64,000 bases of DNA from a bacterium (GCA_965213685.1 CBDBZY010000041.1:352001-416000); one strand, 5' to 3'; numbered from the stretch's first letter, positions 14,402 to 58,087 are shown. The notes: generated by a model not told the origin, from the sequence alone. Numbers and translations: made by a program.

Positions 14402-17400
14402 TTACTCTAATGATCCTACCCACACTTGCTGGGAATACCACCCAACACCCTCCACAGCCCCTCCAGCCACAAGCAGTTCACCAGAGGGAAGTACTGCACA
14501 AGAGGGAGCCCACATTCCCACAGGAAGCTCTCCACACCTGCTCCATCTCTTCCCTTCTGCCTCATATCTGAAGAGCTCCTTTCTCATTGCTGACCCTCCT
14601 ACTAGTAGCAAGTGCTTCTGCAGGGCTAAGAGTGTGGGGCCATATACTGGAGGGGATGGCAGTTCCTGCCATGTTGGGTCAGTGGTGGTGTTGCGAGTTG
14701 CATTTGATATCAGGGTGGGGAGGTGGGCGGAGAACATGTGAGGCTGACCATCACTCCAGTTATATGATGAGATGTATACGTAATCACTAATGATGACTGC
14801 TGTCATGCCCCTACCCCCCATAGGCACTGGCTGTGCACTGTACCACTGGTGAGTGGAGCAGTCCAGGACTTGTACTGTGTCCTTGTAGAGGTACCCACAT
14901 GCCACAATGAGGTATTGCTGGTAGCCCACAGCAGCTGACCATTCTCTACCTGTTGGCATTCTTGGGTAGTGCTGAGTATTCCAGCGGTGACCCTCACTGT
15001 CCCATAATTGGATAGCAGTGCTGCCTCCCTCACCACCAGCTAGTAATAGCTGGTCCTTGACTGATGCCATGGCAAAGCAGCACTCAGTGCTCTTTGGTAG
15101 CTGAGACCACTTCCCCCTACTGGGGTCATACCTCATAACAATGTAGTCATTGTTGTCCTCTCCAGCCTCCCCATTAATGTAGACTTCTCCCTTCAGTGCT
15201 ACTGTGTGAGCATACTGGACTCCAAAGGGCAAGTCCTTTCCTCTCCTCCATTTGAGCGGGAGGGGCCATCTCAGTGGCTGGACCTGGGGCTGTAATGAGG
15301 TGAATGATGCAGGGAGGGAGGGAGGGAGGGAGTAAGGGAGGGATGGAGGGAGAGAGGGAGGTGGAGAGGGAGAGGGAGGAAGACAGAAGGAGTGGTGTAA
15401 GAATAGTGGTATGGAGAGAAGGTGAAAGTGAGGAAAGGGGGAGGAAGGAGAAAGATAATGAATGCACACATGTATATGTGCTGATGACATTCCATGTAAA
15501 CAATTCTGTACACAGGTGTGGTATACATGTAGCTGGGTAGTAATGCAGGAGCTATTGATTAATTAGCTACAAATATAGGTTATACCATGCAGTGGAGGTA
15601 TATACGGGAATTTATACCATGCTTACTATGAATCCTACGATCTGATTGGTCAGTGTGAGGTCCTTTATTTTACTTATTAGACCTCTGACTGTGGAATTTT
15701 GTCACCTGATTGGTCAGATTTACTTATTAGACCTCTGACGGTGGAATTCTGTCACCTGATTGGTCAGATTTACTTATTAGACCTCTGAAGCTACTTATTA
15801 GACCTCTGAAGGCCGTGCGTGTTTGTACACGCTTTCCTCGTCGTAGCCTCGGGGACAAGTCTTGTACGTATCACGCGCAAAGCGTCGCGCGTACGTCGTT
15901 TGCGCGTGGTGTGCGCGCGTCGTATCCAGGCCCGCGGGGCAGACAGTACAGCTATCACGCGGAGCCATGGCGCGCGTGTACGTGCCTGTGTTTGTGCACG
16001 CTTTCTGCCCCGTAGCCTCGGGACAACTGCTGTACGTGTCACGCGCAAGGCGTCGCGCGTAAGTCGTTTGCTCGTGCGTCGTATCCGGAACGCCCGAGCC
16101 CGCAGGGCATAGAGTACAGCTATCACGCGGCCGGAGCCATGGCGCGTGTACGTGCGCGTGCAGTGTATCTGCATGGCATAAATACCTTATACCATGCCGT
16201 GTCGGTATATACGGGAATGCATAAGACCTTGGAAACCTTAGAGACCCTTGCGCTTCGCGCGCGGGTCTCTAAACCGGTTTCCGCGGTCTTATACATTCCC
16301 GTATATACCTCCACTGCATGGTATAACCTATATGTATAAGACCACGAAACCGGTTTAGAGACCCGCGCGCGAAGCGCAAGGGTCTCTAAGGTTTCCAAGG
16401 TCTTATGCATTCCCATATATACCGACACGGCATGGTATAGGGTATTTATGCCATGCAGATGCACTGCACGCGCACGTACACGCGCCATGGCTCCGGCCGC
16501 GTGATAGCTGTACTCTATGCCCTGCGGGCTCGGGCGTCCCGGATACGACGCACGAGCAAACGACTTACGCGCGACGCCTTGCGCATGACACGTACAACAG
16601 TTGTCTCGAGGCTACGAGGCAGAAAGCGTGCACAAACACAGGCACGTACACCCGCGCCATGGCTCCGCGTGATAGCTGTACTCTGCCCCGCGGGCCTGGA
16701 TACGACGCGCGCACACCACGCGCAAACGACGTACGCGCGACGCTTTGCGCGTGATACGTACAAGACTTGTCCCCGAGGCTATAGCGTGTACAAACACGCA
16801 CGGCCTTCAGAGGTCTAATAAGTAGCTTCAGAGGTCTAATAAGTAAATCTGACCAATCAGGTGACAGAATTCCACCATCAGAGGTCTAATAAGTAAATCT
16901 GACCAATCAGGTGACAAAATTCCAGTCAGAGGTCTAATAAGTAAAATAAAGGACTTCACACTGACCAATCAGATCGTAGGATTCATAGTAAGCTTGATAT
17001 AAATATAGGTTATACCATGCAGTGGAGGTATATACGGGAATGTATAAGACCGCGGAAACCGGTTTAGAGACCCGCGCGCGAAGCGCAAGGGTCTCTAAGG
17101 TTTCCAAGGTCTTATGCATTCCCATATATACCGACACGGCATGGTATAGGGTATTTATGCCATGCAGATGCACTGCACGCGCACGTACACGCGCCATGGC
17201 TCCGGCCGCGTGATAGCTGTACTCTATGCCCTGCGGGCTCGGGCGTCCCGGATACGACGCACGAGCAAACGACTTACGCGCGACGCCTTGCGCATGACAC
17301 GTACAACAGTTGTCTCGAGGCTACGAGGCAGAAAGCGTGCACAAACACAGGCACGTACACCCGCGCCATGGCTCCGCGTGATAGCTGTACTCTGCCCCGC

Positions 17401-20400
17401 GGGCCTGGATACGACGCGCGCACACCACGCGCAAACGACGTACGCGCGACGCTTTGCGCGTGATACGTACAAGACTTGTCCCCGAGGCTATAGCGTGTAC
17501 AAACACGCACGGCCTTCAGAGGTCTAATAAGTAGCTTCAGAGGTCTAATAAGTAAATCTGACCAATCAGGTGACAGAATTCCACCATCAGAGGTCTAATA
17601 AGTAAATCTGACCAATCAGGTGACAAAATTCCAGTCAGAGGTCTAATAAGTAAAATAAAGGACTTCACACTGACCAATCAGATCGTAGGATTCATAGTAA
17701 GCTTGATATAAATATAGGTTATACCATGCAGTGGAGGTATATACGGGAATGTATAAGACCGCGGAAACCGGTTTAGAGACCCGCGCGCGAAGCGCAAGGG
17801 TCTCTAAGGTTTCCAAGGTCCTATGCATTCCCGTATATACCGACACGGCATGGTATAAGGTATTTATGCCATGCAGATGCACTGCACGCGCACGTACACG
17901 CGCCATGGCTCCGGCCGCGTGATAGCTGTACTCTGTGCCCTGCGGGCTCGGGCGTCACGGATACGACGCACGAGCAAACGACTTACGCGCGACGCCTTGC
18001 GCGTGACACGTACAACAGTTGTCCCGAGGCTACGAAGCAGAAAGCGTGCACAAACACAGACACGTACACGCGCGCCATGGCTCCGCGTGATAGCTGTACC
18101 CTCTGCCCCGCGGGCCTGGATACGACGCGCGCACACCACGCGCAAACGACGTACGCGCGACGCTTTGCGCGTGATACGTACAAGACTTGTCCCCGAGGCT
18201 ACGACGAGGAAAGCGTGTACAAACACACACGGCCTTCAGAGGTCTAATAAGTAGCTTCAGAGGTCTAATAAGTAAATCTGACCAATCAGGTGACAGAATT
18301 CCACCTTCAGAGGTCTAATAAGTAAATCTGACCAATCAGGTGACAAAATTCCACAGTCAGAGGTCTAATAAATAAAATAAAGGACCTCACACTGACCAAT
18401 CAGATAGTAGGATTCATAGTAAGCATGGTATAAATTCATTTATTATTTCCTTGGCAAGAAGGTTAACCATGTACACTAGGGTAACACACTATCTCATCTT
18501 GTGTGGCTGGCTCACAGGTGGAGGGTGTGCACTGTTCTGGTGTCTGATTATTGAGGAATAGAATGGCCACACCAGTCTCTCCTCTCACACCATATGTGTG
18601 AGTGTCTTCCTCTAGCTCTTCTTCCCTCCCTCTCCCTCACTCCCTCTCCTTCCTCCCCTCTCCTTCCCTCCCTCCCTCTCCTTCCCTCCCTCTCCTTCCC
18701 TCCCTCTCCTTCCTTCCCTCTCCTTCCCTCCCTCTCCTTCCCTCCCACCTAGTGCAGTTTTAGTTTAGAGGGATTTGCAGTTGATTACTTCTTACCATTG
18801 CTGGAGCACTTTTGTTAGTTGCCCTAATTAATTTTGTTATACTTCGATCTCTTAATAGAACTTCAACACAATTCTTTGATTACATATCTCTGATTGCTTG
18901 CTAGTAGGGATGTAGTTAAGTACACAACAACTTACTGTAGTTTTAGTTGCATGTAGTTATAATTAACAACAATACCATTTACTAGAAGGCTGTACAGATT
19001 ACTACAGAATTCAACACAATGACTGCAGTGACTGTGTACAGACATGGCAGTACTGGTTTTAATTAACATTTCTGTGGGCTGTGACAATTAGTGTTGGTTT
19101 AGTGTACTTTTGTTGCGATTAACTACTACAGTGCCACCCTTCTTCCCTTCCTCTCACCCTTCCCTCACACCCTCACACCGTCAACCCCTCCCCTCCTCCC
19201 TACCCTCTCCTCCCCTCTCCCTCCCCTCCTCCTCTTCCTGTGCCATATGATTATGTGTATCTAACCTCTAGCTCTTCTTCCATCCCTTCCATTCCCCCCT
19301 CTCCTTCCCTTCCTACCCCCTCCCCCCTTTTCTCCTCCCTCCTCCTCCCCTCCCCTGGCAGCCCCTTCCCTCCTTCCTCCCCTTCCCCCGTCCCCCTTCC
19401 CTGCTCTCCCCCTCCCCCTTCTCCCTGCCCTCCTCCCTCCCTTCCTTCCTCCCTCCCCCTCCCCTCCTCCCTTCCTTCTTTCACCCTCCCTCACTCCCTA
19501 TCAGTATCTTCCCTCCATCCTTCCTTCATCCCTCCTTCCTTACCCCCTCCCCCCCTCTCTCTCTCTCTTCCTTCTCCTGCTCCCCTCTTTCCTTCCCTCC
19601 CTCTTCCCCCATTTTCTCAATCCTTACATCTCCCCCACCTCCCTCCCTCCCCTTCCCCCTTCCACCCTTCCCTTTACCTTCCCCCCCTCCCTCAATCTCC
19701 ACCTCCCTTCCTCATTCTTCCCTCATACTTCCCTGCCTCTCTCTCTTTTCTCTTTCCCACCCTCCCCCACTCCCTCCCCTTCCCCCTCTCTCACTTCTCC
19801 CCTCATTTCTTCTCATACTCCCCTCACCCTCCCCTCCTCTCTGCCTCCCCCTCCCTCCCCCTCCCTCCCTTCTTCCCCACCTCCCCCTCCCTCCCCCTCC
19901 CTCCCTCCCCCCTCCCCTCCTCTCTCCCTTTACCCTCCCCCTTCCTTCTCCTCCCTCCTCCCTTCTCTTCTGCCTTTTCTTTCACCCCTTCCCCCCCCTC
20001 CTCCTCCTCCCTCTCTCTCCCCCCTCTCCCCATCCCTCCTTCCTCTCCCTCCTCCTCTCCCTCCTCCTCTCCCTTCCTATTCTCAACCTCCACCTCCCTT
20101 CCTTGTTCTTCTTTCCTCATACTTCCCTGCCTCTCTCTCTTTTCTCTTGCCCCACTTCCCCCTCCTCTCTCCCCCCTACCCCCCTCCCCCTCTTCCCCCT
20201 TCCCCCTCTTCCACCTCTCCCCCCCTCCCCCCTCCCCCCTCCCACTTATCCCTTTCCTCTTGACCTTCTCTCTCCCTTGTTCACCCTCCATCCCTCTCTC
20301 GTATATACCTCCCTCCTCTTCTTGTCCCTTCATCCTTCCTTCCTCCACCTCCCTTCCACACTCTCTCTCCTCTCCCATTACACATGTTTCCACACTACTA

Positions 20401-23400
20401 GAGATAGTTATCACTACATGTAAATCACCCACTGCAGTACCTGCTCATGAGCGTTGGCCTGATTAGGAGAGCTCATCTGAGAGGGAGCTTTGGGGGCAGT
20501 CTAAAGGAAAGGATTATCACTGTGAAATATCTAATTGTAAGGAACACTGTAGCAAGGAGAGAATGAATGGCAGAAGAGAGGAGAAGGTCTAGAGGAATGG
20601 GTCTAAATATTAATGTGGTAAGATGGAATGGAGGGGAGAAGGAAGGAGGGAGACTAGGGAGGAGGAAGGGAGGTGGGAAGAGGTGGAAGAGGAGGGAGGA
20701 AGGGGAGGAAGGAGAAGGGGGGAAAGGGGAAGGGAGAGGGGTAAGAGGAGGGAGGAAGGGGAAGAAGGGGAAGAGGAGGGAGGAAGGGGGGAGATAGGGG
20801 AGAGAGGAGGGAAAAAGAGGGAGGGAAAAGTAGGGGGGAGGGGAGGAAGAGGGGGGAGGGGAAGGGGAAGGAGAGAGAGAGGAGGGAAAGGGGAGGGAGA
20901 GGGGGGAGGGGGAGGTAGAGGGGAGGGGAGGGAAAGGGAGGGAGGGGGGAGGGGGGAGGGGGAGGGGAGGAAGACGGGGGAAGGGGAGTGAGGAGACTCC
21001 AGGAGGGGGAGAGGAGGGGGGTGGGGGGGGAAGAAGGGGAGGGGGGAGGGAAGAAAGAGGGCAAGAGGGGAGAGGGAGTGTGGGAGGGGAGAGAAAGGGT
21101 AGAGGAAAGGGGGAGAGTGAAGGGGGGGAGGGGAGGGAGGGGGTAGAAGGCAAAAGGGGAGAAGTGGAGGGTGAGAATGCCCACTGAAAAGGAGGGGGAG
21201 GGAGTGGAGGGGGTGGGGAGAAAAGGGGAAGGGAGGGGAGGGGGAGGGGGAGGAGAGGGAAGGGGGGAGGAGGGGTAAGGAGGGGAGGGGGAGGAGGGAG
21301 GGGGAGGAGGAGGGGAGGCAAAGGGGGAAGGAAGGGGGTTAGGGGGAGGGATGACGGAGGGAGGGTGGAATCAGAGGAGGTGTGACAGGGTCAAAAGGTT
21401 CACCTATTATGTCACGTACGCCATATATAATACGCAGCACTCTGCATGTTTCACCACTGCACCCGAACTTAGCTAGTTGAAAACAGTCTCTATGTGCTTC
21501 GCTTTAGTTTGATGCTATTTTAGTCACCACGCTCTCCACTAGCAAGCCCTTGTGAACGTTGTGAGTATGTATCCCTGTACCTACATCATGCCAAAGGAAT
21601 GTTTGGAGTGTCATTACTACTTGTACATACACATAGGCATAATGTATACAGGTGTTTTTGCGGAGGGTACAGTGGCTAAAATGGCATCAAAACTAAACAG
21701 AACCACGTAGAGACTGTTTTCAACAAGTTACCATCGAGGTAAAGTGGTGAACTTGTCTGCTATACATTCTCGATGGCGCACATGACCATATTAATTTGAT
21801 CTTTTGACCCTGTCGAACCTCCCCTGGGATGGAATGAGGAGGAGTAGAGGGTGAGAGGGAGGGAGAGAGAACAGGAGAATAGCCACAGCTCACAGATCTT
21901 GGTGTGGCTGGAGATGTCTTGTACACTGCAGAATTCTTGCTTGCCTAATAAGGGCAATAAAGAGAGAAGAGAATGAAATTGAATGCTAATCTGCTTTGTC
22001 CTCCTTTCCTCTCTTCCTTGCTTTGTTCCTTTTTGCTTCCCCTCACTATCTTTTGCACTTGGAGCATTACCTGCACATCAGCTTGCTGTGGTCCTTGAGG
22101 GGTCATCTGAGAGTCACCTTTTGGGCTGGGACTGGGCCTAGGGGGAGTCTGGAGGAGACAGGTTTGCTGTGTTTAGTTCATGGCAATAGGACTACTAATC
22201 ATTACAACAACTTTGTGATATGCACCAATCCTATCTGTTTCCTGTAAAAAGTCAGTACTGAGAACTCTATTACTAGAGTCAGTAGCAGGAGGGGGAGGTA
22301 GGGGGGAGAGAAGGGGGGGGGGGGGGGGGGGGGGGGAAGAAGGGGAGGGGGGAGGGAAGAAAGAGGACAAGAGGGGAGAGGGAGTGTGGGAGGGGAGAGA
22401 AAGGGTAGTGAGAACTCTATTACTAGAATCAATAGGATGATGACCAGTACATGAATCGATCTCCTTTACTTGTACACAATCAAGCATAATACACATATAA
22501 AAATACTCACCAACTCTTGTTTGCTCAGATGTTCAACCTCTGCCTTTAGGGACTGATTCTCCTGTGTCAGTTGTTGAACCTCTTGGACCAGTTGTGTGTT
22601 CTTCTTCTCCACTGAATTCTTCTCCTGTTCTTTTGAGTGCACTGCTCGTTGCAGTGATCCAATGTGCTGGTTCTTGGAGAGAATCTGCAGCTCATGCAAT
22701 TCAATCTGCTGGGTTTGCTCCTTCACTGTCTGCACCAACACCAATCTGTCCATGTGACATTCTGCATCATCGATCTCACCCCTGGCTCGCTCTAGTAGCT
22801 GCACCACCTGATCTATCGAGGGCCGATTCCTTGGAAAGTTCCCAAGGCAGCGCTTGATCATCTGCACAAGAGGATGATCATCATGGAACTGCCTGTAGAT
22901 CTGCTGCATGTACTCCTCTCGCCGCTCCAGCTCACTTCGAATGGCTGGTCTTCCACGCTTATCTTCGTACACTTGTGCCAGAACCTTATGGGGGAAGTGT
23001 TGTGTGAGGGTGAAAATGGCCACCACACCCAGCGAGAAGATGTCGATCGTCATGTCGTATCGTGATTCATCTCCCAGGGCCTCTGGGGGCATGTAGATGG
23101 ACGCACCAGGTGCTTTGGTCATGGTGGTTACCCTCATGCTGGGGACAATCCTAGCCACCCCAAGGTCTGCAATTTTGGCTGTCATGGCGGAGTTCAGGAG
23201 AACGTTTCTCGCGGAAAGATCCCGATGGATCAACGGCGGAGAACGACTGTGCAGGTAGCAGAGACCTTGAGCGACGTCGTAGAGGAACGAGTGCTTGAGG
23301 CCCAGGGGGATATCGGGCCGAGTCTCCAGCAGGTCGTGGAGGCTGGTCAGCAGTCGCTCCATCACCAGCGCAGGGAGCCGCGAGCCCGGCAGCACGCAGA

Positions 23401-23674
23401 TGCCGAGAAAGAGGACGATGTGTGGGTGGCGGAGGGTGCTCATGAGTCGGCACTCCTCAACGAACTGGCCTGCCGCCCTCTCCATCTCAGCCTGCGGTAT
23501 TTCGGAGCGGTCTTGGAAGATGTCGTGGATCTTCTTGATGGCGCAGACCGCTCCAGGTATCTCCCCCTCCTCCACGCTGCCGTAGGCTCCTGAGCCGATT
23601 CTTGTGCCGGTTAGTCGCACGTTTTGGAGCTGAAACGCGCTCAGCTCGGGGTAATCGCGAAGGAGATTCGCCAT
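14402..23674 (-). CDS. Kinase-coiled coil-Kelch protein, copy 1 (apparently intact, about 760-775 aa)
   Basis: Exon 23674-22511 encodes a kinase (GSGAYG, CAIK, HRDLSARN, DLG, YMPPE, DIFSLG) plus a heptad-rich coiled coil. Phase-0 linker exons: 22241-22206 (ETDRIGAYHKVV), 22148-22071, 21944-21894, 20500-20441, possibly 18543-18490. Terminal Kelch exon 15289-14402 is 888 nt with GG...Y...W repeats. Linker exons are inferred from AG/GT ends, phase and paralog conservation. Confidence 0.85.
15575..18435. mobile_element. ~710-725 bp element: three head-to-tail copies plus one inverted copy nested inside the first
   Basis: Units start ATAGGTTATACCATGC at 15575, 17005 and 17714 (period 709) and end GCATGGTATAAAT at 18435. 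The inverted copy at 15610-16331 interrupts unit 1 with an AT duplication. Confidence 0.85.
19135..21365. repeat. Giant polypyrimidine then polypurine tracts flanking a 60-nt exon
   Basis: C/T-only run about 19135-20375 and G/A-only run about 20570-21365, with exon 20500-20441 at the switch; paralogous layout at 35350-39020. Confidence 0.9.
21476..21724. mobile_element. MITE with ~55-bp terminal inverted repeats
   Basis: GTTGAAAACAGTCTCTATGTG...TTTAGTTTTGATGCTATTTTAG is mirrored at about 21672-21724. Confidence 0.6.
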
Positions 23675-23676
23675 AT

Positions 23677-24995: not shown

Positions 24996-25092
24996 GCCAT
25001 ATTGTCGAGTGTTCTCTGTGACAAAATGAACAAACAAGGGCTAGTGGGTGGGGCTGGTTTATTCTTGTCACGTGAGGAGTGAATGCCAATAA

Positions 25093-25956
25093 TTGGCGAG
25101 CGGGAGCGAGCCAACCTGGTGATGTCAACAGTATGGTGGCTATGGTGGCCCACAGGTATATTTGCGACTTTTACCCTTCACACGATACTATATGGTGGCC
25201 CACAGGTATATTTGTATGGTGGCCCACAGGTATATTTGCGACTTTTACCCTTCACGCGATACTCGATATACGGTATGACCGATAATTAGACCCTCGATAT
25301 ACGGTAGGGTGCATTATTGGGACATACGGTATAGAGTGGCGGTCACCGCCGCGGAACAGCGGTCACCGCCGCGAAGGTGGCGGTCACCGCCGCGACACGG
25401 CGGTCAACGCCGCGAAGGTGGCGGTCACCGCCGTGAAGGTGGCGGTCACCGCCGCGAAGGTGGCGGTCACCGCCGCGGCACGGCGGTCACCGCCGCGAAG
25501 GTGACCGCCGTGCCGCGGCGGTGACCGCCACCATCGCGGCGGTGACCGCCACCTTCGCGGCGGTGACCGCCGCCATCGCGGCGGTGACGGCCGTGCCGCG
25601 GCGGTGACCGCCACCTTCGCGGCGGTGACCGCCGTGCCGCGGCGGTGACCGCCACTCTATACCGTATGTCCCAATAATGCACCCTACCGTATATCGAGAG
25701 AGTCTAATTATCGGTCATACCGTATATCGAGTATCGCGTGAAGGGTAAAAGTCGCAAATATACCTGTGGGCCACCACATTGGGCCACCATACCACCATAA
25801 TTTTTCTATAATTATTATAAGACGTACGTGTGACCCCCACTGTGGCTCCACACATACCGTAACGTTCACGTCAGTTCTAATTTAACGCGAATCACACGTT
25901 GCACATCCAGCCCCACCCCCACCCCACCCTCACATTGGCTCGCTCCCTCTCGCCAA
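25093..25956. mobile_element. MITE with TTGGCGAG ends carrying a ~650-bp foldback palindrome with a GC-rich 21-bp minisatellite core
   Basis: TTGGCGAGCGGGAGCGAGCCAA / TTGGCTCGCTCCCTCTCGCCAA ends; arms about 25215-25490 and 25500-25776, core unit GGCGGTCACCGCCGCGAAGGT; absent in the copy-3 upstream region. Confidence 0.75.
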
Positions 25957-33213: not shown

Positions 33214-36237
<3,024 letters not shown>

Positions 36238-36267
36238 CTGGAGGAAAGGATTATCACTGTGAAATGT

Positions 36268-41612: not shown

Positions 41613-42859
41613 GGCCACTGCAAATGAGAGTTTAGTTTCCCGTCCGCCGCCCGCCCCTTCTTGAGAGCGCCGCGTGGTTTGACCATTATTGACCTTTGTA
41701 CTCCATTATTGCGTCATCTTCATTCACGTGATAGCTTCAGAGTACATGTGCGGTGGTTGTCAGTGAGTCCGAGTCTTTTTCCAAGTCTTGTGCAGCTGAT
41801 ATCGTAGTTTCATGTTGTTTTTGAGCGCTTTTGCTTTGATGCTGCTTGTGAACACTTGTGTCTTCGACTCTTGCTGTCAAACCACGCTGTTACGATGGAC
41901 TATTTTGCAAAGCGAGGATGAAAGGTTGTCCTTGACAGATTTTTATGAAAGGGTAAGTTTCTGTACTCTTTACAAATTTGAAACGTGATATTAAGTTGTA
42001 TGCACTGTAGCGGTTGTTAGTCTGGCCCGGTACTGTACAGTGTATGTGTGTTGTATGCACCATACATATACAATATGCACTGCACTGTTGTGCAAATTTA
42101 ATATGGTAATTGGCATTCCAGCTTACCACAAACACGCCTCTGTTGCAAGGTCACCTCAAGGTCTGCTTATGGCTTCTCCTTTATAGGTGGTGCTTCCAAG
42201 GATAGCCACCAGTAGCAGCAAGGAAGATCATCAAGTGGTTGAAGATGTGCGAGTGGGAACTACAAAAGATGCACTGGACAGTGTTGGTGATCATGCACTC
42301 CAAGTCAGTGATGTGACTGCCTGTTTTGGACGATTTATCAAGTACTATGTGAGAGGTAGCTCCACCACTATTCCCCAAGCATCACCAATAGTCAGAAACG
42401 CATTTCAGATCATGATGTGCGCTCAGAAGCAGCAGAACACTGTCAGATTGCCTTCTCCTGTAACTGTTCGTAACAAACGTGATCAACTCTACAATGACCT
42501 TTTGGAGCTTATCAAATCGAAGGAGCTAGCTAAAGGACGTAGTCTATGTTCGACAAATGTCGTGTGAGGACCCAATCGAAAAACTCTATTACTCTGCCAA
42601 GTTTGCGGACATCTGTGTCTACTGTGGTGTTTCTGTAGATCCTTGGAGTGACAAAGAGCCTTACTATCCACAGTGTGAGGGATGTAGAGAAAAACCTCCA
42701 ATTGCTAATGCTAAGAAGTCACATTCAGTTCCTGTTTCTTAGAATTTCAATTTTTTTGTTAATGATATTCATAGTAATGAATAATGGTAATGGTCCGCCC
42801 GCCCGCATCAAATTTCCAGGAAGTCTGGACGGGAAACTAAAGTCTCATTTGCAGTGGCC
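41613..42859 (+). mobile_element. Zator-type DNA transposon, internally deleted
   Basis: 33-bp TIR GGCCACTGCAAATGAGA(G/C)TTTAGTTTCCCGTCC, TTA TSD; coding remnants (RNAFQIMM...RNKRDQLYNDL; CEDPIEKLYY...ICVYCG...YPQCEGC); empty site near 45333. Confidence 0.82.
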
Positions 42860-45800
42860 TTATCTTTGCCTTGTTTGTGGGTATTTGTTTGACGTCATTA
42901 TTTCCGTTAGGGAGTGCCCGGAAACCAGACATTCCCTCAGCATTGTGATGCTTTCCTCACTTCTCCACTACTCCCAAGAGACTCATCTCACGCCACATTC
43001 TCCATGCTATCCAAGCAGCTTCATTGGATACCTAATAAGGAAATTAATGCTAATCGTGTTTGTTTGGACACTGTTTCCTACAAAGCTATTTTAGGGAGTG
43101 CTATTATTACGTACGAAGAACATTGTAGTATGTCTTGAGTACTCAATAAACCACCTCATCATCTCAGCTGCACTCTGGACACTCAGCCTCCACACACTAT
43201 ATCACTACACAGCAATAGTCTGGCGGATATGATCCATCTCATTTTAGGGCAGCGAAGTGCACATTAATTAAGCATGTAAGATTGTGCATACCACCATCAA
43301 TTACATTCAGACAACATTAAACTGACAATAGTTAAACAATGGTGTGTAATTTCATCTATGATTTCAAAACTTAATGCAGCAAACTATCAAACAGAAGTCA
43401 CAAATTTTTAGTTGATCATAAAGAGCTACAATTCCACTATCCTCACAACTTGTGCCAACAACTAATATCAACACAATTATAGAATGCTATAACACTGTAA
43501 TATTATTCCAATCATGCTCATCCACTCTTTATCTCTTATGCAAATAGCATATTATGCGTTAAGATTCATGTATGTCAGATTATCTTCACTTGAGTACACA
43601 CATATATTACACATCTTGGAATAACAAGTTAACAGCAGTGCGATGGTAACTTTCCAAGTCATTCTCTGCAGACATGATGAAGCCTCCACATTCAACACTA
43701 TACTATTCAACAGAGCATTAGTCTAGTAGCCATGTTTTAACACGTGATGCTATAATATTGTGGACTTTCTGTCGTGAGAATTACCTATCATTCTTTCAAT
43801 TTGCTATGCTTACTCTGTTTTCATATCTGTCCTAGATATAGCAGCATAATTATTAACTTTGTTGGAGCGCCACTTCCGCTGCGGCTGCTGCTGCCTCCTT
43901 ATGTTGGGAGATTACAACCTATACATAGCAAAAGAACGATCTATCTCATCTTCTCACCTGCCACAATAGGCGCGATTTGAAGACACGGGAAGGTGTAGAG
44001 ATAAGTTGCTGTCACGTTTCTCAACTGATCCGAGGTGCGATGTCTGTGACTGCGATCGCCCTTCTTGCATGCAGGGAGGGGTCTGGAATCAGACTGTACT
44101 GCTTCGATAGTAAGGTGCTAATGACCCCTCTTGACGTTCTTGACGTGCTGCTAGTCTGCCTGAACGCAACTTTATAGTTATTCCCCAGTTATGACGTCAC
44201 CCAGAGCGTGGATAATGGACATTATTCAGGTTATCCTCATCACGCGTATCACGTTCCACGGGGCTCACCCACACGTCTTCCTCTTCCCACTCAGCCTGCC
44301 TCTCATTTTCTCCTCGGACCTCCCTCGCCACTTTCTATCATGAACGCATGTAGAGCAGAGTCACTCATCTTCTCAGTCCCCCATTCTTCCCACAAAGTAT
44401 CCTCAGTTTCACAGTACAGTGTCTGTCCCACTGCAATGCAAAATAATGTGCGCTGCGTGTGATTGATTACTATCGCACCTAGTACGGGAGTAGGTGTATG
44501 TAGAGATTGCATGGCCACGGCACTCACACCTAGCCTGGCCGTAGAAAATGCGGCTTTTCACGTTTAATATGAAAGCAACATGATTTGTACTAGCACCTTT
44601 CGCCTGACAGCTCAGTAGCATGTTGCTCAAGTTCAAAGCTAGCATGTTCCAGGGCTCTCCCTAACAGCTAGGACTCATCCATCCTAACCGTTCTCTCTAG
44701 TTCTCTCCCTGACGTCATTCATATTAAGGCTGCGGACAGAACCCAAAAATGAGACACTTTACGGACCATTCACCATGCAGGCTATCCAAACACGTAAGGT
44801 AATAATTATTACACACTTACAATAATGCATTCCTGATCTAGTTAACCTTTCACCTGAATATGTTCTTGTGTTAAGGCAAGAGGAAGGATAATCTGGTGGT
44901 GCTATTACTATATAGGCACAGGTGTACAAGCTAATCCCTTGAGACTCACTGTAGGAACAGCCTCCACACACCACATCACCAGAGTGGCTATAGTCCACTT
45001 CTCGTGTTAATTAGAAAGAAAAGCAACCGTAATTCGTAGATGAAACTTAGTGTCGTTCCAGAACCTTCCGCGAACGCAGATTGAGGTCACGTTTGCACGT
45101 TATCTCCGCATTCGCTGGGCATGGGGTCGAGACCGTTGCTCGCGCATGCGCGTTCACGGAATACGGTCTGGTTCACGAGACTAAGGTGAAACAAAAGCAC
45201 ATGGGGTGAAATTGCTGTGCATAACAAATTGACCGCACCTACACAATGGCGTCAGGGCTACAGAGAGTGTATAGTTTGACGTCAGGTTGACCGGCAGCTA
45301 GTAACTTATCAGGGGAATAATATTTCTGTAGTATTATCTCTGTCTTGTTTGTGGGTACTTGTTTGACGTCATTATTCCCGTTAGGGAGTGCCCGGAAACC
45401 AGACATTCCCTCAGCATTGTGATGCTTTCCTCACTTCTCCACTACTCCCAAGGGACTCATCTCACGCCACACTCTCCATGCTATCCAAGCAACTCCAACG
45501 GATACCTAATAAGGAAGTTAATGCTAGTCATGTTGGTTTGCATTTGTACCGGCACTACGAAACACTGTTTCCTACAAAATGTTTAATAGACTATTAGCTA
45601 TTGCGTATGAAGTACATCTTGGGTACTCAATGAACTATCTCATCATCTCAGCTGCACTCTGGAGACTCAGCCTCCACACACTATATCACTACACAGCAAT
45701 AGTCTGGCGGATATGATCCATCTCATTTTTGGGAAGCGAAGTCCACATTTACAAACATTAGGTATGCATGTTAGATTCCATTAATTTTAAACTGACAATT

Positions 45801-48347: not shown

Positions 48348-51300
48348 CTGAAATGAGGTGGAAAGAGGGGGAGGGGGAGGGGCATAGAGGGAGCAAGTAA
48401 AGTATAGAGAAGAGGAGGGAGGGAGGGAGAAAACCAGGCGCAGAACAACAAGTGTGCGGCCACACAAGTGTACATGTATTTATGCTACATGTACTGTACA
48501 TGTACAGAAGTCTAACCACATGTAACATACAATAGCATACAATAGCATACATGTACATCTGCAATGAGATGGAAAGGGGGGAGGGTAGCAGGGGAAGGAA
48601 AGAGGAGGGAGGAAGAGATCCAGGCACACAACATGTGTGCACTAGCAACTGGCCCACATGTCATGTGTACTTATGCTACCTGTACATGCTGAAGCTGGAA
48701 GTGTGTAGACATACACATTACATTGTATATATATTTTTCTAAGCCTTTGAGGCTGCTGTAAATTGTTCGTACATATCGTGATATTGTACATTTCGGACAT
48801 ACACACAAATGTAACTAATGGTTAATGGGTTAACAAGGAACAGTACAAGTGGGAGGTTGGGGAGAGGGAGGAGGAAAAGGGAAGAACGAGACATTGAGGG
48901 GGTGATGGAGAAGGAGCAACAGCAAAACCACTACCTGAGGGAGGGGCAGGAGATGGAGAGGAAAGGAGGGAGGGGAGGCAGGAGGGAGTGGCTAGTGTGC
49001 ATGATCAGTCCTAGAGACAAGGCAATGCAAGGCTACCACTCTCAGGAACAGGGAAAAAGTGAGATGCCTCACGCAGGACTCAAAACTGCAGCATACATGT
49101 ATGTACATATGTACATACTCAGATGCCGTGGTAGCTTAGTGAATAAAGCACAGTGACATGAAAAGGAATGTTGGGAGTACGTACGTGTACATGGGATCAC
49201 AGTGTGGAGAAGGAGGAAGAGGAGAAGGAGGAGGAGAAGGAGGTGGAGAGGGAGGAGGAGGAGGAGGACTGTGCCTGACCAATTCGTATGACCAGGCAGG
49301 CAAGGTACCATTTCTCGGTCTGCACGTCAGATGAATCCAGGTCCGTGCAAAGGTCTTCTCACGGTCTGGTGGCAGACAGTGCTGGGAGGTGGCAATCATG
49401 TGGCACTCACTGCTCGTGGGGAGAGGGAGGGAGGGAGGGAGGGAGGGAGGGAGGGAGTGTTGGAAGAGCATGTCCAAACATACAGTGCCATACATGGATA
49501 TACATGTACATGTACTGTACATGTACACTGTCCCATGTGTATATTTATACATGTACATGTATTTGAAACAGGAGAGGCAGAGGGACAGGGAGATGAAGGG
49601 AGAAGGGAAGGGGATTGAGATGTACAGTGTAGAGGGTAGGAGGTGTGGATGAATAGAGGATGGATCGAGGGAGGGAGGGGGAGGGAAGGAGAGGATGGAT
49701 GAGGGGGGGGAGGGGGAGGGAGGGGGAGGGAGGGAAGGAGAGGGAGGAGGGAAGAGAGGCATGGAACTTGAGCAGCAGCACAAGCCTTACATGGAAGTGG
49801 AGGGGGTGCACTGTACAGTAGAGGGGAATACTGTGCCAGTAACACAATAGCACACATCACTGGACACCCACCAGCCTCACATGCACACAACACAATGCAC
49901 TACCGCACTGCCCCACCCTCACCACACTATAACAGCACTACAACTGCACTGCTATAGCACTGCACTGAACACACATGGGAGGCAGGAGGGAGTGGCTAGT
50001 GTGCATGATCAGTCCTAGAGACAAGGCAGCGCAAGGGACCACACCTGGGAACAGCTGCTGCTTTTTCCAGAGGAAAAGAGGTGCCTCAAGCGGACTCAAC
50101 CTCCCAACACACTGCGTACTAGGCACATGCTCTACCAGCTGAGCTACCGAGGCAGCCCAGCTGGGCAGGTACATGTACAGGCACTGTGAACTATATAAAT
50201 TGTTGTGTAATGACCTTACGATGTGTGCTCTTTTCTATCAAACTCCTTGTAAGTACACCTACTGAGTTTTTTGTAATATGATCAGTCAGCACTCACCACC
50301 CATACCTTTCTAACATCCTACTGCACTTCCATTCACTTGTATAGCTTTCTTTCATGTGATGATCAAATAGCACAGGGACACCTGTACTAATACACATGAT
50401 AGATACATATGTAGCTACAAACATGGTTTTAGGCTACGCTAACACAGGAGTTGCACAAATAATGATTCAAAAGCAAAACCACAAAGCAAAATAAACAATT
50501 CTCCAATTAAAGCAGCTTGAAGAATTTTGCCAGAGCGAGATCTTCTTCTATAATTTTGTTGCGCCAGAAATTTCTAACTAACTCAACTCTCTCCTCCAGT
50601 TTGCTTTTCATCTTCCTCTTTTCAGTCTGGCGTGCCTCTGCAATATTTCTATAATGTCGAGCTAGTGTTGGAGCTTTATTCCTCTCCTTTCTAGTTCTTT
50701 CCTGCACCGTACCGCAGGTACTGTTGCTGACTTTCTGTTGCAGCTGCAGCCAGGTTTGTTTTCAGAGACTGAGTCACAACAGCATCAAGCAATAGTGGTG
50801 CAGTATCAGAGTCATTTTCCATATTTGGTCTTTGAGCATATAACACTGCTTTACAATCCTGCTTGCCTCAATATTGCGACAAAGAGTTTCATTAGTTCTT
50901 GCTTCTCTAATTCTTGCATACTGTAGTTCTTGATCCTCATTTCTCTTCTTCCTTTCCTCTATTTCTTGCAGGTGAACCACACTAAATTTCACAGTACATT
51001 CATGTTCAACCTCTGCCTTGAGGGACTGATTCTCCTGTGTCAGTTGTTGATTCTCCAGGACCAGTTGTGTGTTTTCTTCTCCACTGATGCAATCTGATCA
51101 TTCTTCTCCTGTTCTTTTGACTGCATTTCTTGCAGGTGAACCACACTAAATTTCACAGTATGTTCATGTCAGCGTTGTTTTATGCCATCCAAAGTACCAG
51201 ACTGCCAACTCTCCTTTTTAGATTTGTGTTTATTTAAATGATAATGCTTTTGCCTATCTTTCTTTATTTGCAATGAACGATGTCTTCTGTGTGTCTGTAG

Positions 51301-51713: not shown

Positions 51714-51803
<90 letters not shown>

Positions 51804-52674
51804 TCCACACCTGCATACATACGTGTACAAACATACACACATCACATATCCCTGCCTGCCCAACCGCACAGGAGACAGATCTCAGGTCAGAAATGTGGAC
51901 ACAAGTCACACACCCCTGCCTGCCTGACTGCACAAGAGGCAGATCTCAGGTCAGAAAGACACACATCACACATCTCTGACTGCCCAACTGCACAAGAGAC
52001 AAGATGTCAGGTCAGAAATGCGGATGTACATACAATACACACATGTACCCACACGAACATATACACATATACATATCACATATTTCTGCCTGCCTGATGC
52101 AAATAGGCAGATGTCATATCAGGGGCTTACACGTACAAACACCATACACCCTTGTGTGAGATATAGACACTCATCATGTATAATCCATTTACATGGTTGT
52201 AGAAAACAATACCTTAAAAGTGGAATGAAAATTGAGGTTCGTTTCACTTGAGCCACACTGTTACATCTTCGAGGTGTTTCAGTATCACAAGCAGGGAAAC
52301 TTGATGATGATGGAGTGTCAGAAGGGGTGATAGGCCATGTTTTTGAATAAATATCCTGTATAAACATATACATCACCAGGATGAGAGAGAAAGATTAAGT
52401 GTGAAATGGACGGAGGCAGAGATTAGAGCAAAACAGGCTGGCATATATATAGAAAAAGCTCACCACAAGTGCTTTTCCTCCATCAAAAGTAATGCGACAG
52501 CTCTTGGGGAGGCGTCATTCATCATAGACTAGTGCGAGTATCCCACGCTATTCAGCATGTGCATGCGTAGTTGCGTCTTCATCGTACTATTAAACAGCTC
52601 CTCGTGAGTGTTTGTGGTTGCAGTTGCTACCGAGTCCAGTTACATTGCTTTTTCAGTGTGTACCATCCTTCAAA

Positions 52675-54315: not shown

Positions 54316-55127
54316 GCTAAGTATTGCATTGTGTTAGATTTGAATTCAAGTTTCTATTTATATTTATTTCGATAATTAAAGAGACCCCCAAGTATATAGT
54401 GTGGTTCTAGTATAAGTGCTCACTAAACAGCATACTGTGTATGCCCATGAAGGTTTTGTCACGATGTGGTGGACGGCACCGTCCTGTATTGCCTGTGGAC
54501 AGGAAGCAGATACCGCTTACACGTCAATGGCGGGCACCGTAAAAATCCCGTATAAATGTTCCCAATACGGACTAATACAAGGTCTGTCCAGAGCTCCGCG
54601 AACGCTGCGATTTACCCCACCTCAAGTTTTATGACAGAATTCATTTGCCATCAGTACGGTATCTGCAATCCGGTACTACACTTCCTGTGAAGAATAACAT
54701 AATATTATATGCACCAACACTTCATTATGAAAAATGTGATTACAATTGCAGTATACAAAGTTTTCCACTAACCTCCTGTTACATGCTGTATACATGTAAA
54801 CCAGATGCTTATAGGTGATATTTTCACAAACGTTTGGGTATAATTAACCCAACACACATAATAGCAGGTTGTATAGTGTGCGCATGCTTTCTTTACTATA
54901 GTAGTGTTAGAAAAATGTATATAATTATGTACATGTAAACCACAATGAACGTTCCACAAATTTGGGGGTGTAAGCCAACACTGCACACATAATAGCAGGT
55001 TGTAGGAGTGAAGTAACATGTATTGCATAGCAGCATACACAAATTATTAAATGTAAAATCAAATCACTAGTGGTAGTTCACATGACATTGTACAGTTGTG
55101 CATAGTGAGGTGTTATCAGAGAAACAA

Positions 55128-58087
55128 TCAGTGTTGCTCTAATGATCCTACCCACACTTGCTGGGAATACCCCCAAACATCCTCCCCTCCAGCTGCAAGC
55201 AGTTCACCAGAGGGGAGTACTGCACAAGAGGGAGCCCACATTCCCACAGGAAGCTCTCCACACCTGCTCCATTTTTTCCCTTCTGCTTCATATCTGTAGA
55301 GCTCCTTTCTTTTCCCCCACCCTCCTACCAGTAGCAAGTGGTTCTGCAAGGCTAAGAGTGTGGGGCCACGTACTGGAGGGGATGGCAGTTCCTGCCATGT
55401 TGGGCCAGTGGTGGTATTGCGAGTTGCATTTGATATGAGGGTGGGGAGGTGGGCAGAGAACATGTGAGGCCGACCACCACTCCAGTGATATGATGAGATG
55501 TATACGTAATCACTAATGATGACTGCTGTCATGCGGTGACCCCCCATAGGCAGTGGCTGTGCACTGTACCACTGGTGAGTGGAGCAGTCCAGGACTTCTA
55601 CTGTGTCCTTGTTGGGGTACCCACATGCCACAATGAGGTATTGCTGGTAGCCCACAGCAGCTGACCATGCTCTACCATTTGGCATTCTTGGGTAGTGCTG
55701 AGTATTCCAGCGGTGACCGTCACTGTCCCATGATTGGATAGCAGTGCTGCCTTCCTCACCACCAGCTAGTAATAGCTGGTCCTTGACTGATGCCATGGCA
55801 AACCAGTGGTCAGTGCTCTTTGGCAGCTGAGACCACTCACCAGTGGTAGAGTTGTATTGCACTATGACATACTCATTGCTGCCCTCCTTAGCAAACCCAC
55901 CTCCAATGTGGACATGTCCTTCAGTAATACAGTTTGGGCACACAAGACTCCAAAGGGCAAGTCCTTTCCTCTCCTCCATTTGAGTGGGAGGGGCCATCTC
56001 AGTGGCTGGACCTGGGGCTATAATGAGGTGAATGATGGCAGGGAGGGAGAGAGGGAGGGAGGGAGGGAGGAGGGAGGAGGGAGAGAGGAGGGAGAGGAGA
56101 TAGGGAGAGAGGAAGAGGGAGAGGCGTAAATGAGAGGAGGGGGTATAGGGGAGGTAGAGACACCAGGGGAGGGGAGGGAAGGAGAGGGGAGGGGGAGGGG
56201 AAAGGGAGGGGGAGGGGGAGGGGAAGGGGGTGGGGGAAGGGGGGGGGAGAGGAAGGGGAGAGGGGGAGGGGAGGGGAGGCGGGGAGGGGGAAGGGGAGGA
56301 GGGGAGGGGGAAAGGGAGGGAGGGGGAAGGGGAGGGGAAGAGGGGGAGGAGGGAGGGAGGGATGAGAGGAGGGGTGGGAGGGATGGGTGGAGGGGAGGGT
56401 GGAATGAGGAGGAATGGAGGGTGAGAGGGCGGGAAGAGGACAGAATAACCACAGCTCACAGATTTTGGTTTGGTTGGAGATGTCTTGTATACTGCAGAAT
56501 TCTTGGTTGTCTGCAAAGAAAGGAAAGAGATCGAGGTGGAGTGAGGCAGGCAAGAATAGAGAATGCTAATCTGCTTTGTCCTCCTTTCCTCTCTTCCTTG
56601 CTTTGTTCTTTTTTGCTTCCCCTCACTATCATTTGCACTTGGAGCATTACCTGCACATCAGCTTGCAGTGGTCCTTGAGGGATCATCTGAGAGTGACCTT
56701 TTGGGCTGGGACTGAGCCTAGGGGGAGTCTGGAGGAGACAGGTTTGCTGTGTTTAGTTCATGACAAGAGATTACTAATCACTACAACAACTTTGTGATAT
56801 GCACCAATCCTATCAGTTTCCTGCAAAGAATCATTACTGAGAACTCTATTACTAGAGTCAGTAGCATGATAACCAGTACATGAATTGATCTCCTCTACTT
56901 ATAAAAATCATGCATATAACAATACTCACCAACACTTGCTTGCTCAGCCGTTCAACCTCTGCCTTGAGGGACTGATTCTCCTGTGTCAGTTGTTGATTCT
57001 CCATGACCAGTTGTGTGTTTTTCTTCACCACTGATGCAATCTGATCATTCTTCTCCTGTTCTTTTGACTCCATTTCTCGTTGCAGTGTTCCAATGTGCTG
57101 GTTCTTGTGTGACTCAATCTGCTGGCTTTGTTTCTTCACTGTCTGCACCAACACCAACCTGTCCATGTGGCATTCTGCATCATCGATCTCACCCCTGGCC
57201 TGCTCCAGTAGCTGCACCACCTGATGGATTGAGGGCCGATCCTCTGGAAAGCTTTTGAGGCATCGCTTGATCATCTGCACAAGAGGATGGTCATCACAGA
57301 ACTGGCTGTAGATCTTTTGCATGTACTCCGCTCGCCGCTCCAGCTCATCTCGAAAAACATGCCTTCGGTGCTCATCTCGGTACACTTGTGCCAGAACCTT
57401 ATGGGGGAAGCGTTGTGTGAGGGTGAAAATGGCCACCACACCCAGCGAGAAGATGTCGATCGTCATGTCGTATCGAGACTCGTCTTCCAGTGCCTCTGGG
57501 GGCATGTAGATAGACGCACCAGGTGCTTTGGTCATGGTGGCTACCGTCAGGCTGGGGACAATCCTAGCCATCCCAAGGTCCGCAATTTTGGCTGTCATGG
57601 CGGAGTTAAGGAGAACGTTCCTCGCTGAGAGATCGCGATGGATCAACGGCGGAGAACGGCTGTGCAGGTAGCAGAGACCTTGAGCGACGTCGTAGAGGAA
57701 CGAGTGCTTGAGGCTCAGGGGAATATCGGGCCGAGTCTCCAGCAGGTCGTGGAGGCTGGTCAGCAGTCGCTCCATCACCAGCGCAGGAAGCCGCGAGTCC
57801 GGCAGCACGCAGATGCCGAGAAAGAGGACGATGTGTGGGTGGCGGAGGGTGCTCATGAGTCGGCACTCCTCAACGAACTGGCCTGCCGCCCTCTCCATCT
57901 CAGCCTGCGGTATTTCGGAGCGGTCTTGGAAGATGTCGTGGATCTTCTTGATGGCGCAGACCGCTCCAGGTATCTCCCCCTCCTCCACGCTGCCGTAGGC
58001 TCCTGAGCCGATTCTTGTGCCGGTTAGTCGCACGTTTTGGAGCTGAAACGCCCTCAGCTCGGGGTAATCGCGAAGGAGATTCGCCAT
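55128..58087 (-). pseudogene. Kinase-coiled coil-Kelch copy 3; kinase and linker intact, Kelch exon has a 1-nt frameshift (pseudogene or assembly error)
   Basis: Exons 58087-56930, 56820-56785, 56728-56651, 56510-56460 and Kelch 56017-55128 (890 nt, not divisible by 3). It reads CTG AAG GA CAT GTC near 55919, versus CTG AAG GGA CAG GTC in copy 2. Confidence 0.75.

Follow-up and report, generated by a model that had tools for sequence, protein, structure and literature searches.

Organization of the locus

The 64,000-nucleotide stretch of DNA analyzed here, referred to as the window, is positions 352001-416000 of contig CBDBZY010000041.1 (C41; 588,777 bp, 46% GC) of assembly GCA_965213685.1. 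It carries three closely related exons encoding Kelch repeats and two exons encoding a protein kinase domain followed by a coiled coil; together these are predicted to form two-exon kinase-Kelch genes in which a conserved kinase is joined to a Kelch propeller with one hypervariable, positively selected side. The principal features, in window coordinates, are as follows.

14202-14401, minus strand: 3' untranslated region (UTR) block common to the Kelch exons, with homology extending 144-201 nt past the stop codon.
14402-15289, minus strand: Kelch exon of gene 1; 295 amino acids (aa) plus TAA, a predicted six-bladed propeller with a hypervariable upper face.
15290-22510, minus strand: predicted intron of gene 1, ~7.2 kb; donor GTGAGT, acceptor TTACAG, with inserted repeats and CT/GA-rich low-complexity DNA.
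22511-23674, minus strand: kinase and coiled-coil exon of gene 1; 388 aa from the ATG to the last codon before the GTGAGT donor, phase 0; Pfam Pkinase E = 5.2e-37; coding sequence intact.
33214-34104, minus strand: Kelch exon 2 (copy 2); 296 aa plus TAA, intact, with a conserved acceptor; an 'orphan' without an upstream kinase exon.
51004-51130, minus strand: kinase-exon remnant, 3' (coiled-coil) part, 128 nt, between Kelch exons 3 and 2; 96.9% identical by blastn to 56950-57077.
55128-56017, minus strand: Kelch exon of gene 3 (copy 3); a 1-nt deletion in a GGG run near 55917/55918 in this assembly.
56018-56929, minus strand: predicted intron of gene 3, 912 nt, CT-rich; donor GTGAGT, acceptor TTATAG.
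56930-58087, minus strand: kinase and coiled-coil exon of gene 3; 386 aa, Pfam Pkinase E = 2.4e-38; coding sequence intact, with ATG and donor GTGAGT.

An initial annotation of this DNA described an array of kinase-Kelch genes whose three Kelch exons are almost identical in framework. Every framework motif and variable patch that it quoted is present, and all three exons translate as Kelch domains (Pfam Kelch_6, E = 2.1e-14, 1.2e-12 and 4.3e-13 for copies 1, 2 and 3, with Kelch_1 and Kelch_2 in all three), although copy 3 is not open in one frame. What it called a gene array in fact combines complete genes with Kelch exons that lack a kinase: an upstream kinase exon is present for copies 1 and 3 and absent for copy 2. 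Aligned as DNA, the three Kelch exons consist of long runs of identical columns interrupted by short patches of substitution and in-frame indels. Copy 2 has a near-identical twin at contig position 514254-515141, from which it differs by four nonsynonymous and three synonymous changes, and the 128-nt kinase remnant is also found in a duplicated segment of the contig.

Loss of one G from the GGG run in copy 3 causes frame 1 to stop after 'LLKD', about 33 codons in, and its stop is shifted two codons downstream by a change of TAA to CAA. The frame break is either private to this copy or a long-read homopolymer error, because a near-twin elsewhere on the contig (529850-530731) is intact and every contig spanning 55917 in two public runs (X1 and X2) has one extra base, with none supporting the deletion.

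The kinase exons begin with an ATG (MANLLRDYPEL...) and end in phase 0 at the GTGAGT donor; the Kelch exons follow a polypyrimidine tract and CAG or TAG, begin in phase 0, and carry their own stop and a conserved 3'UTR. Splicing of exon 1 to exon 2 is predicted for both gene copies, and for gene 3 the intron is placed because the sites match the consensus, the phases agree and a relative, P0003, has the kinase C-lobe, the coiled coil and a 51%-identical Kelch part in one open reading frame (ORF), sharing the junction motif WPLPL.WRRGKD. The same order of kinase, coiled coil and Kelch is found without an intron in P0029 (774 aa) and in a 691-aa gene neighboring the window on C41. Homology between the introns of genes 1 and 3 is limited to 21826-22287 and about 110 nt adjoining the Kelch exon.

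Source of the contig

The assembly that holds C41 is filed as one prokaryote genome of 7.97 Mb in 71 contigs. Most of its contigs have a GC content of ~65%, with several large ones (C64, C18, C41, C16, C51 and C7) at 44-53%, and about half of the assembly consists of such eukaryote-like contigs with introns and microsatellites. A bacterial origin of the locus was considered and ruled out by the GT..AG introns, by the 46% GC as compared with ~65% in the bacterial contigs, and by the absence of the Kelch exon from all 41 other genomes of the bacterial family. For these reasons, and because genomes of the same genus measure 2.9-4.6 Mb and the genes of the window contain microsatellites and CT-rich low-complexity tracts, C41 is best read from its sequence as a eukaryotic, sponge-associated contig wrongly binned with the bacterium.

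The genome of a sponge host is the most likely source of the window, and parts of the locus are found in public runs labeled 'sponge metagenome'. Run X9 has 439 contigs at 95% or more identity to the locus, 229 of them at 99% or more. For the stretch 54900-58400, runs X1, X2, X5 and X9 contain 324-572 separate short contigs per run at 95% or more identity, and words from the exon framework have a summed depth tens of times that of the unique flanks, a depth that is not to be read as copy number. These data suggest that those samples contain many more near-identical copies or alleles than the 12 present on C41.

Kinase and coiled coil

The kinase domain matches Pfam PK_Tyr_Ser-Thr (E = 6.4e-36) as well as Pkinase, and its best relatives in the PDB are CTR1 (7.8e-27) and TNNI3K (1e-23), followed by IRAK4 (E about 1e-20). 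From these matches it is classed as a kinase of the tyrosine kinase-like (TKL) type. All four complete copies on C41 have the catalytic motifs GSGAYGSV, AIKK, FVEEC (with the alphaC Glu), HRDLSARN and DLG, and the kinase is presumably active. The substitution of DLG for DFG, pointed out in the initial annotation, reads KIADLGVAR or KIADLGMAR. DLG in place of DFG also occurs in RIPK1. The ratio of nonsynonymous to synonymous substitution rates (dN/dS, or omega) among the four copies is 0.20-0.36 at dS of 0.10-0.15, and the few changes lie mostly in the C-lobe; the description of the kinase as conserved is thus borne out as purifying selection.

The product of the kinase exon contains no signal peptide and no hydrophobic or membrane segment, the G-loop starting at residue 27. 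Pfam finds no death domain or RHIM in the kinase exons, where 26 residues precede the G-loop and an unseen upstream coding exon is possible; it also gives no NACHT match, and no BTB or BACK match in the window ORFs scanned, the upstream exons yielding kinase domains only.

Modeled as two copies, the coiled coil (residues 296-388) gives a dimer score of 0.59, against 0.00 for the best control; among proteins with solved structures, 21 of 30 that are pairs of one chain attain the mark for this score, and 0 of 23 that are single chains. Repeated runs agree in at least 92% of contacts, the partner's per-residue confidence (pLDDT) is at least 86, and the contacts are in register along residues 303-387 with the 3-4 spacing of a coiled coil, a motif familiar to structure models of this kind. 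The model supports a parallel two-stranded coiled-coil dimer, in line with the coiled coil that had been proposed to connect the two domains.

Propeller fold and predicted binding face

AlphaFold2, given a 55-sequence alignment, folds the Kelch exon product as a six-bladed propeller (pLDDT 96.7, predicted TM-score 0.93) with 24 strands in the order D6, A1-D1 ... A6-C6, the N-terminal strand closing blade 6. Foldseek matches it to the Kelch domains of NS1-BP, KLHL12 and KEAP1 at query-normalized TM-scores (TMq) of 0.72-0.77; the wider set of matches, which adds KLHL20, LZTR1 and designed Kelch proteins, spans TMq 0.64-0.77 at 12-19% identity, with E down to 8.4e-18. The profile matches and the six four-stranded blades together support membership of the Kelch superfamily. 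According to the accessible part of a structural study (PMC3597819), the D-to-A (DA) and B-to-C (BC) loops make up the upper-face substrate pocket of solved Kelch domains.

Diversifying selection on the loops

Alignment columns were divided, from DSSP strands alone and before variability was viewed, into top loops (D-to-A and B-to-C), bottom loops (A-to-B and C-to-D), strands and termini. Among eight non-redundant copies, Nei-Gojobori dN/dS reaches 1.51 in top loops, compared with 0.36 for bottom loops and 0.74 for strands, with dS of ~0.1 in all classes; values of 1.57 for strand A and 0.88 for strand B reflect variability that spills 2-3 residues into the loop-side ends. Tree-free minimum counts of nonsynonymous to synonymous changes (N:S) are 107:26 in top loops and 86:44 elsewhere (Fisher p = 0.012), or 132:30 and 61:40 if the strand ends are added (p = 3e-4). 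Along the exon, nonsynonymous changes cluster beyond chance (over-dispersion index 3.04, reached in 4.3% of 5000 permutations), and no such clustering is seen for synonymous changes (index 1.16). The loops therefore have dN/dS above 1, as was proposed at the outset, and their divergence also exceeds that of silent and noncoding sites: the proportion of nonsynonymous differences (pN) at variable columns is 0.41-0.51, against a synonymous proportion (pS) of ~0.10 and a 3'UTR diversity of 0.087 over the first 150 nt in the Kelch exon copies. A scenario in which the loop patches are older than a homogenized framework was rejected, pS being 0.098 in top loops and elsewhere alike; the pS of 0.23-0.25 seen at columns picked for their variability is circular.

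Codon site models (our own code; GY-type, F3x4) were fitted to nine intact copies, all from C41, over 301 columns on an IQ-TREE topology. The one-ratio model M0 gives omega = 1.35. M2a (log-likelihood -2821.64) is strongly preferred over M1a (-2915.94; likelihood ratio test [LRT] 188.6, p = 1e-41), with omega2 = 11.4 and p2 = 0.096, and the comparison of M7 with M8, the test that had been suggested for this family, likewise rejects neutrality (LRT 190.9; omega_s = 10.9 for 9.7% of codons). The pairwise homoplasy index (PHI) is 0.257, as compared with 0.309 +/- 0.010 after permutation, and none of 2000 permutations is as low, indicating recombination between copies; the tree is star-like, and copies K366 and K582 group only in blade 1. 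Because the copies recombine, four segments were refitted, each on its own tree, and each still rejects neutrality (LRT 23.5, 54.3, 45.0 and 37.0; each p <= 8e-6).

Nineteen codons have P(omega>1) > 0.9: residues 25, 26, 41, 45, 48, 70, 71, 87, 116, 134, 135, 160, 161, 177, 216, 233, 235, 260 and 278 in the numbering of the 14402-15289 product. Thirteen lie in DA or BC loops, four in the first 2-3 residues of strand A and two in the last two residues of strand B, so that all 19 are in or within three residues of these loops; none falls among the 121 columns of the bottom loops, strands C and D and the termini (hypergeometric p = 3.8e-5), and each of the six DA and six BC loops contributes at least one. 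Since the DA and BC connections of an up-and-down four-stranded blade are on the same side, the variable sites cluster on one face, as had been anticipated. The richness in W, Y and R noted by eye is also seen at these sites (Y 13.9% as compared with 4.5% elsewhere, W 8.6 with 4.0, R 7.3 with 4.2), C and D being enriched too. Enrichment in these five residues is characteristic of hot spots for protein binding.

The array across C41

Of the 12 Kelch exons of this type on C41, nine remain intact; the other three are a 5'-truncated copy with a stop, the copy with the 1-nt deletion and a badly broken one. Of five kinase exons, four are intact and one is frameshifted. A kinase exon lies 0.9-8 kb upstream of four Kelch exons, none is present within ~10 kb upstream of seven, and the remaining one is too near the contig end to tell. 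The window unit [kinase - Kelch - Kelch] is duplicated ~122-129 kb away with ~2% silent divergence, and the Kelch copies share a discrete ~1.2-kb cassette whose ends lie 60-110 nt upstream of the acceptor and 144-201 nt past the stop. Broken copies alongside segmental duplicates agree with the birth-and-death turnover that had been suggested for the family.

Among six orphans, diversity in the 30 nt that precede the acceptor is 0.023, as compared with 0.079 over the first 60 nt of the same exons' 3'UTR and ~0.08-0.10 at silent sites; either the orphans are still spliced or conversion tracts span the region. Kelch cassettes outnumber kinase exons, which leaves room for alternative last exons or conversion donors. 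The excess recurs in public data clustered at 90%, where at least 46 Kelch and at least 19 kinase clusters are found at 75% or more identity among the 120 matches listed for each. We put forward, tentatively and as something of a long shot, that the kinase-less Kelch exons are working cassettes. In one version, a single kinase and coiled-coil exon would splice to any of several downstream Kelch exons, each with a phase-0 acceptor, its own stop and a 3'UTR, so that one promoter would give a repertoire of receptors, as with the alternative terminal exons of lola and mod(mdg4) in Drosophila; in the other, silent Kelch exons would refresh expressed copies by gene conversion, as chicken pseudo-V genes do. 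The hints are the ratio of 12 Kelch to five kinase exons, the ~1.2-kb cassette, the low acceptor diversity and the significant recombination.

Two groups of distant paralogues lie nearby or on another contig. The single-exon 691-aa gene is at L017:328-2403 on the plus strand (C41 ~348.5-350.6 kb), just upstream of the window, and encodes kinase, coiled coil and Kelch; with HRG for HRD and DFA for DFG among its catalytic motifs, it is probably a pseudokinase. Contig C7 has two further distant kinase-Kelch genes, at 152-155 kb and 161.5-164 kb, in a head-to-head arrangement.

Homologues and subfamilies

A word-indexed search found 363 proteins at E <= 1e-30 in the length class 162-517 aa, with at least 46 at 75% or more identity among the best 120 of the 363. 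Most are ORFs of ~250-400 aa on long contigs, that is, this exon read as a 'prokaryotic' gene. An exhaustive search of representatives (50% identity clusters) gave 37 at E <= 1e-30, the 5913 at E <= 0.001 being Kelch proteins generally. No relative was found in JGI metagenome_contigs, and the ESM Atlas returned generic Kelch clusters only.

In an alignment of 48 sequences (P0001 and 47 homologues at 70% or more identity), most columns are invariant or at least 90% conserved, and the same positions as on C41 are hypervariable, with an entropy of 2.1-3.4 bits; the 35 sequences that cover 17 of the sites have 34 distinct 17-site signatures. Four other subfamilies (75% or more identity within each, ~50-60% to this one) show the same pattern, with mean entropies at the 19 sites and elsewhere of 2.56 and 0.59 (n=28), 1.98 and 0.46 (n=17), 1.21 and 0.26 (n=5) and 1.24 and 0.31 (n=5).

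Other features of the window

A palindromic E-box-like motif, TCACGTGAC, lies upstream of both kinase exons.

58148-58156, minus strand: TCACGTGAC, 61-69 nt upstream of the gene 3 ATG, in a promoter block common with gene 1.
25067-25075, minus strand: second match to TCACGTGAC, in the displaced promoter block of gene 1; the block at 25001-25094 is homologous to the gene 3 upstream region.

These are the only two matches in the window; two or more matches occur in 10 of 100 shuffles. Of the three other kinase exons for which the sequence upstream was inspected, two have the motif there as well. We take this candidate motif to resemble MiT/TFE or USF sites.

The gene 1 intron contains a ~2.7-kb insert (15669-18376) of ~700-bp repeat units in both orientations with 50-nt sub-repeats between them; it looks like nested copies of a small mobile element, and its ORFs on the two strands are mirror images. 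Long CT/GA-rich tracts (19100-21400, 35280-36200, 38400-39240, 56020-56680 and others), one of which makes up most of the gene 3 intron, contain frames of 150-450 codons open on both strands and rich in P/S/L or G/E/R; these are composition artefacts, not genes.

Between Kelch exon 2 and the kinase remnant, at 36572-37876 and 42187-43094, are ORFs of 126-244 aa with no Pfam match; in one of them a cysteine/histidine-rich tail comes after a lysine/glutamate-rich stretch. These ORFs may be the remains of a transposon that replaced the lost kinase exon. A multi-exon gene on the minus strand at 1-12100 encodes TPR-like repeats (weak TPR_12 and TPR_1 matches in one exon), with CA/TG microsatellites between its exons; judged by eye, we presume it to resemble the CTR9 subunit of the Paf1 complex. 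The plus-strand ORF at 61256-61621 matches Pfam DEAD (E = 1.9e-9) and encodes the N-terminal motif I region of a DEAD/DEAH-box or RecQ-like helicase; it could belong to a host gene, as one of its exons, or to a mobile element.

A proposed diversifying kinase-Kelch recognition family

We interpret the locus, with reasonable though not high confidence, as part of a tandem germline multigene family that combines a kinase, a dimerizing coiled coil and a hypervariable Kelch face for intracellular recognition. The domain architecture, the fold, the site and strength of selection, the recombination and the purifying selection on the kinase are demonstrated by the analysis. Omega above 1 on the binding surface, an array of 12 and recombination by PHI are the operational marks of a diversifying recognition family, and each is found. 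A binding face so unlike from one copy to the next is a hallmark pattern of recognition families of the immune type.

Under this interpretation, exon 1 would supply a cytosolic TKL-group kinase and a coiled coil of ~85 residues that holds two chains as a parallel dimer, and exon 2 a six-bladed propeller. The kinase would be the conserved output module and the upper face of the propeller the specificity module, made of six inter-blade DA loops and six BC loops with 1-3 hypervariable residues each, where ligands would bind. New specificities would come from duplicated copies, point substitutions, small in-frame indels and segments exchanged between paralogues, and would be kept by diversifying selection. 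The proteins would recognize fast-changing ligands inside the cell, such as proteins of microbes, symbionts or viruses, and this recognition would be linked to the phosphorylation of either the ligand itself or a downstream partner.

The initial annotation had likewise seen a diversifying sensor wired to a kinase, and selection on the Kelch face, the kinase, the coiled coil and the turnover of copies all favor that part of it, none of the three refuting conditions that it named having come true; the immune or allorecognition function attached to it is a matter of inference, and an immune role would be our guess. Its term 'antibody-like' can be kept as an analogy only, since the variants are germline differences between paralogues, with no sign of somatic change.

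Several observations weigh against this interpretation. Broken copies make up three of 12 Kelch exons and one of five kinase exons, and constraint on the framework is weak, with M2a assigning omega = 1 to 49% of codons. Private framework changes in the kinase-less Kelch exons have an N:S of 42:19, not different from the neutral 3.19:1 (binomial p = 0.12). The site models took their branch lengths from M0, fixed up to one scale factor, and used naive empirical Bayes posteriors and nine sequences that include one near-duplicate pair, and recombination inflates tests of this kind, a problem that the per-segment fits lessen and do not abolish. The placement of the selected sites on one face is a topological argument from DSSP strands and the literature, not a measurement on the model coordinates. 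Over 54900-58400, where the run contigs are only 80-360 nt long, too short to tell alleles from paralogues, no contig joins a kinase exon to a Kelch exon, and none of the runs listed for the locus is recorded as RNA. Part of the array may be decaying, and because framework constraint is weak and the orphan N:S is neutral-like, some copies are probably dying, as birth-and-death evolution predicts.

Taken further, the seven Kelch exons without a nearby kinase exon, the broken copies, the neutral-like orphan framework and the half of codons that fit omega = 1 could mean that the variability as a whole is relaxed constraint among mostly dead gene fragments, orphan exons and pseudogenes. Such decay would give omega of ~1 everywhere, and not ~11 at ~10% of codons, all of them on the DA/BC side and none in 121 other columns. 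A frame of ~295 codons has also stayed open in nine of 12 exons at dS near 0.1, and the kinase-paired exons show purifying selection on the framework (N:S 19:15, p = 0.007; p = 0.27 for the difference from the kinase-less class). The same sites are hot in four other subfamilies, and the 30 nt before the acceptor are about four times more conserved than silent sites, orphans included. We regard general decay as distinctly unlikely, and retain a diversifying recognition family in which individual copies die.

Relationship to known systems

The fold itself raises a different possibility, that these are regulatory kinases whose propellers recruit different host proteins and have no non-self role. 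The solved Foldseek matches all bind endogenous degron peptides (KEAP1-Nrf2, KLHL12-DVL1, KLHL20-DAPK1, KLHL3-WNK4), the fused kinase could simply phosphorylate whatever protein the propeller binds, and expanded F-box-Kelch or BTB-Kelch adaptor families offer an analogy. Partners of endogenous origin tend to be conserved, which would lead one to expect strong purifying selection on the face that binds them; here that face is the fastest-evolving part, with 34 signatures in 35 sequences, which fits an arms race or self/non-self discrimination better. Substrate adaptors of this kind seem to us an unlikely explanation. The KLHL adaptors themselves (KEAP1, KLHL12, KLHL20, NS1-BP) share the six-bladed Kelch fold and, as far as the available text of PMC3597819 goes, an upper-face pocket of DA and BC loops in the place of our variable sites; they differ in having a BTB-BACK partner where this family has a kinase, in their 12-19% identity and in being conserved single-copy orthologues rather than a diversifying array.

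The closest case in mode of evolution, offered as an analogy and not as membership, is that of the HNWD NLRs (het-d and het-e, together with het-r) of the fungus Podospora anserina, which form an incompatibility system. In the portions of PMC12222747 available to us, their WD40 repeats are near-identical by concerted evolution, with a few codons per repeat, on the interaction surface, under diversifying selection. Shared with the present family, on that account, are a cytosolic β-propeller sensor with a framework near-identical at the DNA level, fixed hypervariable positions in each blade, diversifying selection on a predicted interaction surface and shuffling by recombination or concerted evolution. 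As far as that source describes them, the HNWD proteins differ in fold (WD40, not Kelch), in having their repeats inside one gene where whole six-blade exons are duplicated along the chromosome here, in a HET and NACHT signaling part where this family has a kinase and coiled coil, and in belonging to a fungus, not an animal.

That this closest formal analogue is an incompatibility system (PMC12222747, from the same portions), and that extreme diversity of a recognition surface is typical of allorecognition loci, would favor variants that mark individuals and control tissue fusion or rejection. The proteins have no signal peptide or membrane segment, however, and would meet foreign cytoplasm only after cell fusion; moreover, the diversity lies between paralogues on one contig. 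The loop patch 55844-55949 recurs unchanged but for one extra base in contigs of two other runs, which argues against hyper-polymorphism at that locus. We find a role as allorecognition determinants very improbable. It was the weaker half of the function first proposed, given the lack of a signal peptide or membrane segment, and we consider intracellular recognition of fast-changing ligands more plausible.

Plant kinase fusion and tandem kinase proteins of wheat and barley (Lr9, Sr43, Pm4) share the plan of an intracellular kinase fused to an unrelated recognition or integrated domain. In the accounts available in part to us, they are race-specific immune receptors with genetically proven function, where function is only inferred here, and they differ in kingdom and in fused domains, with no Kelch fusion seen among them, so that the likeness is one of analogy only. 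The present family belongs to none of the three groups, HNWD NLRs, KLHL adaptors or plant kinase fusions. IRAK4 shares the TKL-type catalytic domain and is among the PDB relatives of the kinase, but IRAK and RIPK proteins have a death domain or RHIM, not found by Pfam in the kinase exons here. Membership of either family is not supported by the sequence comparisons, because the nearest solved relatives are the Raf-like CTR1 and TNNI3K. A bacterial Hanks-type Ser/Thr kinase with Kelch/NanM propellers (P0004) has the same order of N-terminal kinase and C-terminal Kelch in one chain; it differs in its 25% identity over the Kelch part, its length of 1007 aa, a hydrophobic segment, two propellers, the lack of a coiled coil and the absence of any sign of a diversifying array.

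No description of a hypervariable kinase-Kelch family was found in the literature searched, most subscription journals and supplements being outside its reach. A sponge study reports 'Kelch motif containing genes' down-regulated after exposure to microbe-associated molecular patterns; from the part of it available, their kinship with this family cannot be told (PMC6208332).

Implications

The locus is filed under a bacterial genome, and exons of the family stand in protein databases as stand-alone 'prokaryotic' ORFs, which calls for caution in the use of such entries. The 19 mapped sites provide a handle for binding experiments and could aid the design of Kelch scaffolds with new specificities. 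The current view of early-branching animals is that they depend on germline receptor families that have expanded (such as NLRs, SRCRs and TLR-like proteins). If our interpretation is right, the kinase-Kelch proteins would be a structurally different receptor class, with a cytosolic kinase wired directly to a hypervariable Kelch propeller, and in their logic the animal counterpart of fungal hypervariable-WD40 NLRs and plant kinase fusion proteins. From the size of the family, with 363 homologues and at least five subfamilies that have the same hot positions, they would likely be a major and as yet unnamed part of how sponges, with their dense symbiont communities, interact with microbes or viruses.

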